In this document: positions 18,459 through 58,229 of the stretch, one piece after another
Layout: every line of letters starts with the position of its first letter
How positions within the stretch are numbered: position 1 is the first letter of the stretch
Origin: Nanobdellota archaeon
GTDB taxonomy: Archaea; Nanobdellota; Nanobdellia; Parvarchaeales; Parvarchaeaceae
DNA: 58,623 nt
Reading direction: 5' to 3'
Assembly: GCA_021810345.1 (NCBI GenBank)
Contig: JAJZIX010000005.1
Coordinates: 1-58,623 of the forward strand
The notes under the pieces: generated by a model
What the model was told of the DNA's origin: nothing
The model's database searches: none
The model's input: the letters and a program-made list of their open reading frames with translations, nothing else
Made by a program: the position numbers and the translations under genes

Positions 18459-20135
18459 ATGGCAGAGTACATGCTTAACAGCAGGTTTAATGACCCCTTC
18501 AACAAGGTAAAGCTCGGCGTTTCGATCAGCGAAAGAAACCAGCTGGAGGAGTTTTCAAAGGTCCTCCGAAGCGGTGCAAACATGGTCGAAGTTGATATCG
18601 CTAGCATCTACGGCCTGAGAGGAGAGCAGGGCGGGTCCGCAGAAAACATTGGCAAGGAAGAGAGGCAAATAATCGGAAATCTGGCCAAAGTAAATGATGT
18701 CGACCTAAGCGTTCATGCTCCTTGGGCGATAAATCTATCCGGGATAGATCCAGAGTCACGTACAAAAAACCCCGAGTACTCTAGATTAGTTGACAATGAG
18801 ATAAAGGGGGCGGTAAAGTTTGCAGATGACATAAGCCAATCAACTGGTAGAAAGAACATGCCTATCATCTTCCATACCTCCGCGGATAATTTTGGGGACC
18901 CGGATAAGTCTATTAGAGTTACAGCATATGACAATGATGAGGACAAAGTGCTTGTGATCCCTGGCACGGAACTTCACCACATGGATGAGGAAACCTTCAA
19001 AAAAATATACGGTGAAGATACTTTCAGTAAACTTAAGGCAATGGGTCTGAAGCAGAAGAACAAGGACGGCGACAATACTCTAGTCCTTCCTCCACAGGCA
19101 AATTTTGAGTTTCAGAAGACCCTGATACGAACCACTTATAATCAGGAGAGAAGCAGCATAGATTTTAGCCGCGAGAACACGAAAATGATGCTGGATAGGA
19201 TACCTTCATTGGAGACGGCAGCCCTCGCGAAAGGCGATATTGATGAGCTGGCCAACCTGAAAAGAAGGAAAAAAGAGTATGAAGAGATGCTTAAGGACTT
19301 GGATGCAAGGGAAGCGAAGCTTGAGATAGACGTGGCAAACGTGGATAAGAAATATTCCTTATTCGATGATAAGGCCCCTTCCTTTGCAGCAGAAGGCATA
19401 AAGAAAGCTGCGTGGGAATCGTTCAATACCCAGACAAAGCCGATGATTTTAGTAGAAAATCCCATGTCACCTGACATGTCCCTGAGCAGGCCAAAGGATA
19501 CTGCAGAAGCCGTGAAGATTGCACGTGAGAAATTTGCAGACGAGCTTGTAGAGAAGCGAAAGCTATCCAGAAGCGAGGCGAAAAGAGTGAGCGAGCAGCT
19601 CATAGGCGTGAACCTTGATGTTGGACATGTAAATGTTTTCAAGTCTTACACTAATCCTGCGACTGGTAAGAATTACTCGGACGAGGATATAGTCAAACTG
19701 GCCATGGAGGCAAAGAACTATATAAAGAGGTATCATCTTAATGATAACATGGGCAATGTAGATGCGCACTTGCCGCTCGGACAGGGAAACGCACCGGTTA
19801 AAAAAATGTATGATGAGCTCTTGAAAGCAGGAGTTGACGTTCCGGCGATAATGGAAGTGTTCGGCGGCCTTGGTGGCCTTGAAACAGGAGCTTTGCAGTC
19901 GCTTCAGTATATGGGTGCACCTGCGTATGGGGATGTCCCTTACACTTCTATGCCATCATATCTGGGCCAGCCATATTCTTCCTTAATTGGCGACTATTCT
20001 TCATACTCCAATCTTGGATTAAAGCAGGATTTCTTCCCATACTCGGGGTTCTCCGGCATACTCCCGGTATTGGGCGGAGGTTATATGACAAATAATAATG
20101 CAAGCAACACCTTCTCGGGTGCTTCCACATATTGA
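18459..20135 (+). CDS. Xylose isomerase / AP endonuclease 2-like TIM barrel protein with large insertion
   Basis: SVHAP, IFH, VEN, NLDVGH, YHLNDN...DAHLPLGQG, IME metal-binding motifs. Confidence 0.75.
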   Translation: MAEYMLNSRFNDPFNKVKLGVSISERNQLEEFSKVLRSGANMVEVDIASIYGLRGEQGGSAENIGKEERQIIGNLAKVNDVDLSVHAPWAINLSGIDPESRTKNPEYSRLVDNEIKGAVKFADDISQSTGRKNMPIIFHTSADNFGDPDKSIRVTAYDNDEDKVLVIPGTELHHMDEETFKKIYGEDTFSKLKAMGLKQKNKDGDNTLVLPPQANFEFQKTLIRTTYNQERSSIDFSRENTKMMLDRIPSLETAALAKGDIDELANLKRRKKEYEEMLKDLDAREAKLEIDVANVDKKYSLFDDKAPSFAAEGIKKAAWESFNTQTKPMILVENPMSPDMSLSRPKDTAEAVKIAREKFADELVEKRKLSRSEAKRVSEQLIGVNLDVGHVNVFKSYTNPATGKNYSDEDIVKLAMEAKNYIKRYHLNDNMGNVDAHLPLGQGNAPVKKMYDELLKAGVDVPAIMEVFGGLGGLETGALQSLQYMGAPAYGDVPYTSMPSYLGQPYSSLIGDYSSYSNLGLKQDFFPYSGFSGILPVLGGGYMTNNNASNTFSGASTY

Positions 20136-26225: not shown

Positions 26226-28127
26226 CTAGTTTATTGTTCTTTCTTTTATTTTTTTGGTTGCTTCTTCTATAAATTCGTCTAATTTAACATTATATTTTGT
26301 TTTTCCGTCTCTTGTTCTGATGGCAATGACATTACCACTCTCTTCCTTATCTCCCAAGATAATAGTGTAGTAAGCCTTTATGAGCTGGGACTCCCTCACC
26401 TTATACTCAAGCGTTCTGCTGCTGTCATCAAGTTCAACCCTTAGGCCGGCTTCTTCTAAGCTTTTTGATACCTTTGCAGCATATTCCCTGTTGCGCTCGG
26501 TTATATTAATTACTCTGGCCTGCACAGGTGATACCCAAAGAGGAAGGCTTCCCTTAGAATTCTCCAGTATTATGCCCATAAACCTGCCTATTGTGCCCAT
26601 TATTGACCGGTGTATCACAAGCGGTGTATGCTCCTTATTGTCAGCTCCAACGTACACTGCGCCGAATCTTGCAGCAAGGTTAAAGTCAAGCTGTATGGTA
26701 GATACTGCATATGCGGCGTCCGGCTTGCCTGTAAAGTCCAGCACATAGATGTCTATCTTTGGACCGTAGAAAGCGCCATCGCCCTCCTTTACAGTGTATT
26801 TATACCCGCTTTTATCAAGGATTTTCTTTAGAGTGGCTTCTGCTTTATCCCATAATTCATCGGCGCCTATCCGCTTTTCAGGCCTTGTAGCTAGCACCAT
26901 TATCGGCGAGAGGTTAAATTTGCCGTATATTTCATCGAGCATTTTAAATAGTAAAAGAACCTCCTGCTCTACCTGATCCTCAGTCACGTACACGTGAGCG
27001 TCATTCTGCTCCATTAGTCGGGTCCTGAGCAGGCCATCCATAGTACCCTCAAGTTCATATCTGTGCAAGAATCCATAGTCAGCGAGTCTTAATGGCAATT
27101 CCTTATAGCTGCGTGTTCTGGATTTGAATATGAGAGCAGAGAAAGGGCAGTTCATAGGTTTCAGTCCGTACTCTTCATCAGAATCGAAGGGCGACGCGCG
27201 GAACATGTTCTCTCTATATTTGTCGAAGTGCCCGCTAGTTTTCCAAAGATCCACCTTGGCTATTATTGGGGTTATCACCTCTTTGTAGCCGTACTTAAAA
27301 TCTATCTCCCTGGCGAACTTCAGGAGTTCATTATAAACCGCTGCGCCTTTTGGCATGAAGAAGGGCGAACCGGGTGAGATATCCGAAAAAAAGAAAAGCT
27401 CAAGGTCTTTACCTATTTTCTTGTGATCATGCTCCTTCTTCTCTTCTGATAGTTTTATATATTCATTCATCTGCTCCTTCGAAGGGAAGCTTATCCCGTA
27501 TATCCTAGTCATTACCTCATTTTTGCTGTTGCCTCTCCAATACGCCCCTGCAACCTTTGTGAATTTTATGGCCTTTATCAATCTTGTTGATGGAATGTGT
27601 GGCCCGCGGCACAAGTCCACAAAGTCACCATTTTGGTAAAAAGTAACATCATTTGCCAATGAATTTAGAATCTCAAGCTTGAATTTGTTGTCCTTAACTA
27701 TCTCCCTCGCTTCATCAACGTTTGACTCTTTTCTTATGAATTTTTCATCTTTCTCTATTATCTTCTCCGCTTCCTTTGTTAACTTTTCCAGGTCGTTGTC
27801 ACCTACATTTAGGTTGTAGAAATCATAGTAAAAGCCTTCGTCTATCGGGGGGCCTATCCCGAGAACCGCATCCGGATAAAGCTTCTTTACTGCAGCTGCC
27901 AAAACATGAGCGGAAGAATGCCAGAATACCTTTTTACCCTCATTGGACTCAAAGGTAAGGAACTCCACCTCTGCGTCTTTGTCCAGCTTTCTCGACAGAT
28001 CATAAAGCTGCCCGTTGACTTTGGCCACAAGCACTTCTTTTAAGTCAACATCGAGTTCCTTGGCTATATCAAAGAGGGTCTTTTCGCCCTTTATCTCGTG
28101 CGTTTCACCTTTGTATTTAATCTGCAT
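26226..28127 (-). CDS. thrS: Threonyl-tRNA synthetase (bacterial/eukaryotic-type TGS and editing domain)
   Basis: WHSSAH, DLCRGPH, LKPMNCP, GAFYGPKID, VIHRS; start reassigned because the longer ORF overlaps tRNA-Pro. Confidence 0.95.
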   Translation of the reverse strand: MQIKYKGETHEIKGEKTLFDIAKELDVDLKEVLVAKVNGQLYDLSRKLDKDAEVEFLTFESNEGKKVFWHSSAHVLAAAVKKLYPDAVLGIGPPIDEGFYYDFYNLNVGDNDLEKLTKEAEKIIEKDEKFIRKESNVDEAREIVKDNKFKLEILNSLANDVTFYQNGDFVDLCRGPHIPSTRLIKAIKFTKVAGAYWRGNSKNEVMTRIYGISFPSKEQMNEYIKLSEEKKEHDHKKIGKDLELFFFSDISPGSPFFMPKGAAVYNELLKFAREIDFKYGYKEVITPIIAKVDLWKTSGHFDKYRENMFRASPFDSDEEYGLKPMNCPFSALIFKSRTRSYKELPLRLADYGFLHRYELEGTMDGLLRTRLMEQNDAHVYVTEDQVEQEVLLLFKMLDEIYGKFNLSPIMVLATRPEKRIGADELWDKAEATLKKILDKSGYKYTVKEGDGAFYGPKIDIYVLDFTGKPDAAYAVSTIQLDFNLAARFGAVYVGADNKEHTPLVIHRSIMGTIGRFMGIILENSKGSLPLWVSPVQARVINITERNREYAAKVSKSLEEAGLRVELDDSSRTLEYKVRESQLIKAYYTIILGDKEESGNVIAIRTRDGKTKYNVKLDEFIEEATKKIKERTIN

Positions 28128-28195
28128 ATTTCTCATTCTAAATTTAGTAGAATAAAAGCCTTTCCTTTTAATTTTACAGAAGACAAAAACAACAC

Positions 28196-28269
28196 TGGGG
28201 TGGCTGGGATTTGAACCCAGGATTTCTAGCACCCGAAACTAGAGTCTTACCAAGCTAGACCACCGCCCC
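28196..28269 (-). tRNA. tRNA-Pro(CGG)
   Basis: CTAGT-TTCGGGT-GCTAG anticodon arm; CTGGG-TTCAAAT-CCCAG T arm. Confidence 0.93.
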
Positions 28270-28304
28270 ATTCTATATTGGTCTTAAGTTTATTGTATTT
28301 ATGT

Positions 28305-29312
28305 TTAATTTGCTCTGTGGTAGCTAGGATAAACCCCCGGTTTCATCACAACGCTGTCATTTTTGATTGCAATTCCCCCTTTGGCATGCATTATTTCAGT
28401 TGGCGTCATTACAGCGTTGCCAAGTGCTATCAGCTCTCCTTTTAATGTTGAGATAAACACTCTATCATTTTTCTCAAAGCTGTTCATCTTGACTATCCCA
28501 GGCACTGCAACTGGCGAGCCGTGGCATACAGTATCGACCGCCTCGTCGGATACGAAAACCTTTGGCATAAAAGAAAGAGCCTCCTCTATGCTCCTCAAGG
28601 TTTTCTTAAGCAGCCTGCTGTCGTTGTTTTTATAAAAGTAGACTGCATCATCAATGTCCTGTAGAGTTACCAGTCCTTCTGTCTCAGAGAGCGTCGAGAC
28701 CTTCGTTCTCCTAAGCTCCATCATGTGTGCTCCTATCCCCAGTTTTTCTCCCATATCGCTTATCAGCTTTCTTATATACGTGCCGGACTCTACGCCGACT
28801 TTGAACAGCACGTCATTGCCTTCAATCTCTAGGATATCCATATAATAAACTTCTCTTTCTCTGTACTGCCTTTTTACGTTTGATCTTACAGGGGGAAGTT
28901 GTGTTATCTTGCCAGTAAATTCGGAGAGCGTCTTAGCAAGCTCATTCCGGTCGAAAGTTTTATGCAGATGCATCAGTGCTACATACTCTTTTCCGCCGAC
29001 TAGCAGCTCAGCTAATGCCTTCGTGGCGTTGTTAACCGCCAATGGCAAAAGACCAGTTACGTTGGGATTTCTTCAGTCTTCTAAAGTCCCTGAGTATCCG
29101 ATCTTATTTGCACCTAAAGGCGCCAATATCTTTTTGGCTGTTGCTGCCGCCGTTTTTGACCTTATACCGCTTGGCTTATCGAGCAGGATGAAACCGAAAT
29201 CCATCCTTTGCTCTATGCTTCTGTCAGCAGGGTAAGCCCCGTATGAAGCATCCGTGCTTTCGTCTCTTATGGTATAAAGCTCAAATTTTCTGCCATCCAA
29301 CGGTAGTCCCAT
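28305..29312 (-). CDS. cbf5: H/ACA pseudouridine synthase Cbf5; exons 29312-29081 and 29068-28305 (331 aa after splicing)
   Basis: LDKPSG, GYSGTL[D]PNVTG, KEYV, QLPPVRSNVKR, GTYIRKL, ELRRT, C-terminal PUA; split by a 12-nt insertion. Confidence 0.92.
29069..29080 (-). other. Candidate 12-nt BHB-type mRNA intron in cbf5 (AAGACTGAAGAA)
   Basis: Sense strand GGGA CTTT AG|A AGACT GAAG AA|A TCCC; removal restores GAT (Asp); contains an in-frame TGA. Confidence 0.82.
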
Positions 29313-29339
29313 AATCCTTTTTATAGTTGGGGCTGGCTT

Positions 29340-29891
29340 TTATCCCTTTTGTTTCGAAAGAAACAGTTCCGAAATCTTAAACAAGCTGGCAGTATCTAGA
29401 TTGGTATCATCTATGACTAAATCAAAAATCTGCAGGTCATTTCTACTGTCGAATCCGTATAACTTTTTGTATATCATCGTGGTAAGCTTATCTTTGTTTT
29501 TGGTGTAATGCAGCGCTTCTTCAATGCTTGTGCTGTCACGCTTTGCGACCCTTTCGGCTCTGCATTTTAAATCTGCTTTCAAGTATATTTTGATTATTCC
29601 GTCTTTTGGTGTTCTCCATGGCGCAACCCAGCTGTCAAGCATGGCATTCCTAGTCTTATCAAATTCATTTGCTATCATCTTGTCAACTTTTCTGTCGTAT
29701 TCGGGGTGCTCAAGCCTGAATTTTATCGCTTTTAAACCCTCATCTGTCTCCCAGTGCTTAAAATCGTGGTCTGGCAGAGATTCCTTTAGTAGCATTCCTC
29801 CGGGTATGTACTTTAAGTCAAATCTATCCGCAAGCATTTTAGCAAGTGAGGATTTTCCCGAGCCGGTAAGCCCCGATACTATCACTTTCAT
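29340..29891 (-). CDS. cmk: Cytidylate kinase (archaeal type)
   Basis: VSGLTGSGKSS, RAERVAKRD, YKKLYG, FDLVID; adjacent to cbf5. Confidence 0.85.
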   Translation of the reverse strand: MKVIVSGLTGSGKSSLAKMLADRFDLKYIPGGMLLKESLPDHDFKHWETDEGLKAIKFRLEHPEYDRKVDKMIANEFDKTRNAMLDSWVAPWRTPKDGIIKIYLKADLKCRAERVAKRDSTSIEEALHYTKNKDKLTTMIYKKLYGFDSRNDLQIFDLVIDDTNLDTASLFKISELFLSKQKG

Positions 29892-56392: not shown

Positions 56393-56507
56393 GCAGGGGT
56401 AGCGAAGTTTGGTCCAACGTGCAGGACTTAAGGTCTTTTGTTTGATCGACAAAGATATGATATCCTGCGGCTTAGCGCCCTCGTGGGTTCAAATCCCACC
56501 CCCTGCA
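56393..56507 (+). tRNA. tRNA-Leu(TAA) with 29-nt intron 56433-56461 (37/38)
   Basis: GCAGGGG/CCCCTGC acceptor, CAGGA-CTTAAG|A-TCCTG, long variable arm. Confidence 0.9.
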
Positions 56508-58043: not shown

Positions 58044-58077
58044 AATATAAAAGGACAGGTTCTCTATTGTTAATAAT

Positions 58078-58180
58078 GCAGGGGTAGCGAAGCCTGGCCA
58101 AACGTGGCAGACTCAAGAAATCATTTTTTGGGTTATCTGCCCTCTTTGTGAGTTCAAGGGTTCAAATCCCTTCCCCTGCA
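58078..58180 (+). tRNA. tRNA-Leu(CAA) with 17-nt intron 58118-58134 (37/38)
   Basis: GCAGA-CTCAAG|A-TCTGC; BHB helix CTCA/TGGG. Confidence 0.92.
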
Positions 58181-58229
58181 TTTTTTGATTCGATAAAAAC
58201 TATTTATTTACTCTTTCCTTCTCTACCAT

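Follow-up and report, generated by a model that had tools for sequence, protein, structure and literature searches.

A probable 12-nucleotide intron of the bulge-helix-bulge family in the catalytic aspartate codon of cbf5 in a Parvarchaeum genome

An interrupted cbf5 gene

The stretch of DNA studied here (hereafter the window, 58,623 nt, contig JAJZIX010000005.1 of assembly GCA_021810345.1, from a Nanobdellota archaeon of the family Parvarchaeaceae) carries on its minus strand, at 28305-29312, a cbf5 gene whose translation contains one internal stop (...GYSGTLED*RNPNVTG...), with 12 extra bases splitting the codon of the catalytic Asp. We think that these bases (29069-29080, minus strand) very probably represent a 12-nt endonuclease-type intron of the bulge-helix-bulge (BHB) family, located in the only cbf5 gene of this Parvarchaeum genome. 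The initial annotation of the window had proposed a BHB-type intron in this codon, and the proposal is supported by the conservation of the insert, by compensatory changes, by frozen synonymous sites and by length variants that shift the frame in sister genera.

Two open reading frames (ORFs), 29073-29312 (79 aa) and 28305-29048 (247 aa), lie in the same frame, as previously stated and as translation of 28305-29312 on the minus strand confirms. Pfam places DKCLD in the first ORF (E 2.5e-7); the second contains TruB_N, matched from profile position 23 onwards, as well as TruB_C_2 and PUA. When the gene is read through, with X at the stop, residues 4-330 align with solved archaeal Cbf5 chains (E ~5e-82), the sole disturbance being a 4-residue insertion at GTLD----PKVSG. 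Excision of 29069-29080 links G (29081) to AT (29068-29067), which gives GAT (Asp78) and the motif GTLDPNVTG, and the 335 codons minus 4 then encode a protein of 331 aa; if the insert is retained, translation meets the TGA. This much of the initial annotation proved exact, including the point that a cut after the second nucleotide of each bulge gives precisely the in-frame excision that restores GAT. Shifting both cuts by 1 base in the 3' direction would give an identical product. The junction itself had been described correctly except for its strand, which is minus, the motif sequence being the reverse complement of 29064-29090 (Table 1).

Rfam models compared with positions 28200-29400 at E values up to 1 matched only a tRNA-Pro (28200-28269), and no family at the cbf5 junction. 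A mobile 12-nt repeat was also considered and rejected, the core being present in this genome only in cbf5 and in one unrelated partial chance match.

An assembly or sequencing artefact, an explanation for which we found no argument, can be regarded as practically impossible. Contigs of four DNA runs from four studies retain the 12 nt, with no indel rows and no variant lacking them, one contig of run X5 covers 28992-29312 without a gap, and the insert is present in 29 separately assembled genomes of the family. The runs that contain the stretch are labelled as mine-drainage, tailings and sediment metagenomes. In these runs the summed contig depth leaps from about 18 to about 1400 over 29043-29110 (60-70 nt), because the junction is common, at an identity of at least 90%, to numerous co-occurring relatives whose cbf5 genes differ elsewhere.

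Table 1. Coordinates of the cbf5 exons, the predicted intron and the splice motif in the window
Feature	Position	Strand	Description
cbf5 exon 1	29081..29312	-	Met1 to the first base (G) of Asp78; DKCLD, ...GYSGTL; matches the N-terminus of solved Cbf5
Predicted 12-nt intron, RNA AAGACUGAAGAA	29069..29080	-	absent from 10 intronless family members and from solved Cbf5
Predicted intron layout			base 1 ends the 5' bulge; 2-6 loop (A, NNN, U); 7-10 3' strand of the central helix; 11-12 start the 3' bulge
In-frame TGA in the intron	29073..29075	-	stops translation of unspliced mRNA after 79 residues
cbf5 exon 2	28305..29068	-	second and third bases (AT) of Asp78, PNVTG... through the stop; remainder of TruB_N, TruB_C_2, PUA
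Whole splice motif	29064..29090	-	outer helix 29087-29090 with 29064-29067; central helix 29083-29086 with 29071-29074
Predicted splice sites		-	5' site after 29081; 3' bulge 29068-29070, 3' site after 29069
Peptide across the restored junction of predicted spliced Cbf5			GYSGTLDPNVTG

Conservation of the insert in the genus and family

The insert is found in 24 of the 33 genomes of the Parvarchaeum genus (the ARMAN-4/5 lineage), 23 of which (that of the window included) were recovered with an exact pattern fixing all twelve intron bases but the middle three, the other being a variant in G043; the remaining nine genomes have an uninterrupted GTLDP. Variable intron bases are restricted to positions 3-5, for which at least nine forms exist (GAC, GCT, AAT, TAT, GAT, CAT, GCC, TAA and CAA). 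In the variant of G043, ACT has become ACC and GAAG has become GAGG, a compensatory change that converts a U-A pair of the central helix into C-G. With TAA in the loop, the 12-nt intron of G042 (locus L039) displays two consecutive in-frame stops (TAA TGA).

Beyond the genus, the insert of G055, which belongs to a second genus of the family, measures 15 nt, with the helix CCUU/AAGG and an inner stem of 2 bp, and that of four of the five genomes of a third genus (g18) measures 16 nt, with CUUU/AAAG and an inner stem of 3 bp; since 16 nt shift the frame, translation through the latter insert is impossible. Two loci labelled Aenigmatarchaeota (L121 and L155) contain a 12-nt intron that hardly differs from the variant of G043, with a CCUU/GAGG helix, and this likeness points to shared ancestry, transfer or mislabelling.

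Codon usage around the junction is frozen in the genes that carry an insert. In the 29 carriers (of 39 family loci), the codons are GGG (29/29), ACT or ACC, TTA (29/29), GAT (29/29) and CCC or CCT, whereas the 10 intronless relatives use GGT or GGC (GGG in 0/10) together with four Thr, six Leu, both Asp and four Pro codons. The choices of the carriers are exactly those that allow GGGA to pair with UCCC/U and CUUU or CCUU to pair with the intron.

These data bear directly on the possibility that the TGA is recoded or read through, i.e. that it has become a sense codon and that the Asp of Cbf5 is replaced by a 4-residue insertion (E-x-X-R). The insert of the window does have the properties expected in that case, since it is 12 nt long, in frame and contains a single TGA. 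We nevertheless consider recoding extremely improbable: the catalytic Asp would be lost, the residue following Glu differs among genomes (D, A, N, Y, H or Q), G042 would have to read two stops in tandem, the 16-nt insert of the sister genus shifts the frame, and selection acting on the protein would leave synonymous sites unfrozen. Moreover, TGA terminates 128 of the 260 long open frames of this genome, and no tRNA-Sec is present among the 33 tRNAs detected by ARAGORN.

The insert could also be the mark of a decaying pseudogene, inactivated because the function of Cbf5 had become dispensable or was supplied by a host, and a small, reduced genome (670 kb) in which Gar1 was not found (no PF04410 match, though the same Pfam model also missed the Sulfolobus control) would not be at odds with such a decay. 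The state of the gene argues otherwise. The insert is the only defect of cbf5 in the 24 genomes of the genus, the gene is otherwise undamaged in every carrier, and this although the exon-2 proteins are down to 62% identical to that of the window. For exon 1 of the 29 carriers, the median ratio of nonsynonymous to synonymous substitution rates (dN/dS) is 0.109, with a maximum of 0.395 (191 of 406 pairs had usable synonymous divergence). The initial annotation had envisaged an intact cbf5 paralogue with relaxed selection on the present copy; we found a single TruB_N locus in this genome, which is cbf5 itself, and the low dN/dS speaks for purifying selection. Finally, the insert itself is conserved, with changes that preserve the structure, and a pseudogene is thus, in our opinion, very improbable.

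The proposed comparison of cbf5 across DPANN gave a positive answer, an insert conserved with structure-preserving changes. In the class of the window, 42 of the 401 sampled genomes match the motif pattern, 29 of 40 in the family of the window and, outside it, 13 of 361, whose inserts measure 13-34 nt, against one of 401 with a reversed-pattern control; the pattern demands the GGG codon, so that these counts are a lower bound. In a quick tree of the exon-2 proteins (43 rows; L037 was left out since its exon 2 is cut by the end of the contig), the carriers occur in several deep branches and eight intronless members of the genus form one clade, two more intronless rows being located elsewhere. 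The tree needs four changes of state, and its deep forks are not resolved. It is compatible with an ancestral intron followed by a few losses, as proposed for Desulfurococcales, without proving this scenario.

The same site in other archaea

We scanned archaeal genomes (one per species) with a pattern in which the exon bases are fixed and the insert is free at 11-41 nt, and recovered at least 120 loci with an insert of 11-40 nt at the cbf5 site. Among the matches listed, 72 carry Bathyarchaeia/Bathyarchaeota labels, 18 Thermoproteota or crenarchaeal labels (Aeropyrum, Sulfolobus, Sulfolobales, Acidianus, Ignisphaera, Thermodiscus, Desulfurococcales, Acidilobaceae), 18 DPANN labels (Woesearchaeota 9, Nanoarchaeota 4, Aenigmatarchaeota 2, Parvarchaeota 1, ARMAN-5 1, and GW2011_AR18 1, which we take to belong to DPANN), five Asgard labels (Heimdall-, Jord-, Borrarchaeum) and two the label Calditenuaceae, while Nezhaarchaeales, Nitrososphaerota, Methanosarcinales, "uncultured archaeon" and "Terriglobia bacterium" appear once each. 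Several of these labels are loose, the "Woesearchaeota" locus L090 and the four "Nanoarchaeota" loci belonging to the genus of the window. The "Terriglobia bacterium" match (L119) is a 2.6-kb contig of a metagenome-assembled genome, with an archaeal cbf5 and a 20-nt intron nearly identical to that of L075 (Bathyarchaeia); the contig is probably mis-binned.

With the family loci added, the 120 listed loci become 149, which represent 122 distinct junctions. In this set, the central helix was defined as exon bases 5-8 facing four intron bases, those just before the final two, a helix left free by the search pattern; counts for the outer helix are partly set by the pattern and are hence not used as evidence. 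The central helix pairs in 98.2% of cells over the 122 distinct junctions, versus 48-65% if the partner is displaced by 1 or 2 bases, and it does so with different bases: C-G 71, U-A 42, A-U 5 and U-G 3 at helix position 2, and C-G 88 and U-A 26 at position 3. AG|A is found at the 5' site of 89 of these junctions, and AA|A at the 3' site of 82.

Intron lengths range from 11 to 40 nt and are a multiple of 3 in 44 of the 122 distinct junctions, as expected of a sequence that is not translated. All 44 of these frame-preserving introns contain an in-frame stop, versus about 14.7 expected from shuffled introns (a count inflated by kinship), so that an unspliced mRNA never gives a full-length protein. 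The excess of stops may reflect selection, or may be a side effect of hairpin loops rich in UAA and UAG. At the lower end of the range, two loci labelled Bathyarchaeia and Nitrososphaerota (L085 and L130) have inserts of 11 nt with no inner stem. The initial annotation had placed 12 nt close to the geometric minimum; it is not the minimum itself.

The gene could finally be split, that is, separate polypeptides of 79 and about 247 aa could assemble into an enzyme with no RNA splicing. Both ORFs are conserved and under purifying selection, and the public annotation, which gives the name "Cbf5" to a 248-aa C-terminal ORF alone, goes in the same direction. We grant this scenario very little chance, because the invariant Asp in its GTLDP context is absent from both fragments, because the C-terminal ORF starts only at a TTG located after ...NPNVTGL, and because nucleotide-level invariance, compensatory changes and covariation of the helix across phyla would all be left unexplained.

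We thus favour an intron, and the window is one example of a broad unannotated pattern, present across Bathyarchaeia, Asgard and other DPANN lineages. In public annotations of Parvarchaeum-type genomes (P0009, P0019, P0036, P0042 and others), a C-terminal ORF of 235-248 aa is the only one named "Cbf5", and the recorded protein consequently lacks the catalytic Asp; the same loss is to be expected in many Bathyarchaeia, Asgard and DPANN genomes with an insert at the cbf5 site.

Predicted fold, splicing machinery and proposed mechanism

The pairings of the motif can be read directly from the sequence, with an outer helix GGGA/UCCC, a central helix CUUU/GAAG and the bulges AGA and AAA. In ViennaRNA, the 27-mer folds with -8.2 kcal/mol (z -2.7, 4 of 200 shuffles being equally good), and in the minimum-energy fold both the outer and the central helix are retained, together with the AAA bulge. 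To this extent the BHB structure drawn in the initial annotation is borne out, but its 3-nt 5' bulge is not thermodynamically favoured, the AG of this bulge pairing with CU to form a 6-bp stem closed by a 4-nt loop. Most 12-nt variants have minimum-energy structures of -5.7 to -8.6 kcal/mol, and the minimum-energy fold coincides with the canonical drawing in 44 of the 122 distinct junctions; in the 15- and 16-nt relatives, the inner stem has 2-3 bp.

The assembly (670 kb in 22 contigs, 90% complete, 44% G+C) was right to be called DPANN-like from the window alone, the genus including Ca. Parvarchaeum acidophilus ARMAN-5, of the NCBI kingdom Nanobdellati (DPANN). Its tRNA set includes Leu(AAG) and Pro(AGG), a trait described for ARMAN-4/5 (PMC3239211). 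The genome encodes RtcB, Nop10 (a partner of Cbf5) and a single EndA (one PF01974 match), a protein of 173 aa with N and C domains, whose best matches among solved structures are the alpha subunit of N. equitans and the alpha4 enzyme of M. jannaschii (E ~1e-30). The Nop10 gene (contig C6, 17492-17641, minus strand) lies about 1.1 kb from that of EndA (~18780-19301, plus strand), with a thioredoxin-like ORF between them.

A tRNA intron of the same window offers a parallel. According to ARAGORN, tRNA-Leu(CAA) (58077-58181, plus strand) contains a 17-nt intron with an anticodon-stem helix, a UU|A bulge, a 4-bp helix CUCA/UGGG, an AG|A site and a weak inner stem, a layout that matches that of cbf5. 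ARAGORN also places a 29-nt intron in the anticodon loop of tRNA-Leu(UAA) (56393-56507, plus strand), with one mismatch in the central helix at the predicted boundaries; its ends may be off by one base.

Several points weigh against our interpretation and should be acknowledged. The strict 3-4-3 drawing, with one A-U pair closing a 3-nt loop, costs +0.5 kcal/mol, and in all 12-nt variants the minimum-energy fold has a stem of 5 or 6 bp, the 5' bulge losing its first base or bases to this pairing. In terms of predicted folds, the 12-nt form is therefore nearer to a relaxed helix-bulge-helix-loop motif, the 3-nt 5' bulge being a permissible drawing rather than the predicted fold. Such relaxed motifs are described as cut only by (alpha-beta)2 and epsilon2 enzymes (PMC5829648, PMC2738675), whereas the endonuclease of ARMAN-4/5 is described as a typical alpha4 enzyme (PMC3239211). 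No hetero-tetrameric (alpha-beta)2 endonuclease, which published work proposes as a correlate of mRNA splicing but which does not define such introns, was found, with one PF01974 match in a genome that is 90% complete, and the missing part of the genome may encode a second subunit. The 24 occurrences within the genus come from related sequences and are not independent events, and excision is itself predicted solely from homology and covariation. As regards the enzyme, either EndA opens the weak pairs of the 5' bulge, or the alpha4 enzyme of Parvarchaeum has a broader specificity than assumed.

With these reservations, the following mechanism can be proposed. Before splicing, the exon sequences GGGA and UCCC would pair as the outer helix, and the exon sequence CUUU would form the 4-bp central helix with GAAG of the intron. 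This places the 3' site in the 3-nt AAA bulge and the 5' site at the border of a short loop, with two bases between it and the central helix (AG|A). The single 173-aa alpha-type EndA would then cut both sites between the second and third bases of the bulges, and RtcB would join the exons to give ...GGG ACU UUA GAU CCC..., which reads GTLDP. The spliced mRNA would be translated into a 331-aa Cbf5 with Asp78; translation of the unspliced mRNA would end at the TGA of the intron and produce no full-length inactive enzyme.

Relation to known introns and evolutionary implications

The kind of intron and its site are already known; what is new is the DPANN host, a length of 12 nt, below the published range, and an endonuclease of the homotetramer type. 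The cbf5 introns of Desulfurococcales and Sulfolobales interrupt the catalytic codon, measure 16-44 bp, are spliced and are cut by the endonuclease (PMC2738675, Yokobori 2009), and the initial annotation had correctly named them as the classic introns at this motif: the records of Aeropyrum, Sulfolobus, Sulfolobales and Acidianus match our site pattern, with inserts of 17-40 nt at the identical position. They share with the Parvarchaeum insert the gene, the codon, the exon helices and the rule of cleavage between the second and third residues of the bulge (PMC2738675), as well as a patchy, lineage-specific absence within the clade, similar to that seen in the Parvarchaeum family. The differences concern the host, a DPANN archaeon of mine-drainage-type metagenomes instead of a hyperthermophilic crenarchaeon; the size, 12 nt versus the published 16-44 bp; the enzyme, a single alpha-type EndA, whereas the papers cited here tie mRNA splicing to the hetero-tetrameric one; and the type of evidence, the crenarchaeal splicing having been demonstrated by cDNA and in vitro cleavage (PMC2738675) while that of Parvarchaeum is predicted from sequence.

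The claim that the known range is extended also holds, both with respect to the published lengths and with respect to a 2020 paper which presents the cbf5 intron as unique of its kind among mRNAs and as not known outside Crenarchaeota (PMC7714728); the cbf5 gene of Nanoarchaeum is described as intronless (PMC2738675). A full-text literature search, the scope of which did not include Watanabe 2002, Yoshinari 2006, Baker 2010 and supplements (among them Yokobori's table of intron sizes), retrieved no report of a BHB intron in cbf5 or another protein gene for DPANN, Bathyarchaeia or Asgard.

Three other types of introns can be compared with that of Parvarchaeum. Archaeal pre-tRNA BHB introns, cited down to 11 nt (PMC2738675), resemble it in the presumed use of EndA and RtcB and in the 3-4-3 geometry in which it can be drawn, the differences being that the cbf5 substrate is an mRNA without a tRNA body and that its helices are built from codons, so that synonymous sites are constrained. 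The BHB intron in the 5' untranslated region (UTR) of HVO_1309 of Haloferax volcanii is likewise an mRNA substrate of the splicing endonuclease outside Crenarchaeota, but it is located in a UTR, interrupts no codon and belongs to a haloarchaeon (PMC7714728). The putative 12-bp introns of archaeal viruses (Peng et al., as cited in PMC2738675) have the same size and also occur in protein-coding genes; their splicing has never been demonstrated and they are possibly translated, whereas the cbf5 insert contains a stop and destroys the catalytic codon.

The cbf5 case bears on both the specificity of the endonuclease and the age of archaeal protein-gene introns. With a conserved, selected intron of 12 nt in a lineage credited with an alpha4 enzyme, one can test directly the published idea that ties mRNA splicing, like the cleavage of relaxed motifs, to hetero-tetrameric or epsilon2 enzymes. 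The use of one site from Sulfolobales to Asgard and DPANN would indicate either the oldest protein-gene intron in Archaea or a repeated seeding of BHB introns, and the self-complementary codons GGN-ACN...GAY-CCN could indeed seed the motif repeatedly. One can go further and suppose that the intron of the Asp codon is a single ancient element of TACK, Asgard and DPANN, reduced in Parvarchaeum to a 12-nt helix-bulge-helix-loop which a homotetrameric alpha4 endonuclease can nevertheless cut, an idea which we consider possible but less likely than not. If it were true, the accepted link of mRNA splicing and relaxed motifs to hetero-oligomeric endonucleases would be wrong, and every version of the element would be built with a frame shift or an in-frame stop (the latter in 44/44 of the frame-preserving introns), such that no full-length dead enzyme could arise from unspliced mRNA.

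Neighbouring genes

A tRNA-Pro(CGG) gene (28195-28270, minus strand) directly follows cbf5. It is overlapped by the longest ORF of a threonyl-tRNA-synthetase-like gene (26226-28232, minus strand, identified from its listed translation), which begins at a GTG inside the tRNA; the true start of this gene is probably a Met further downstream.

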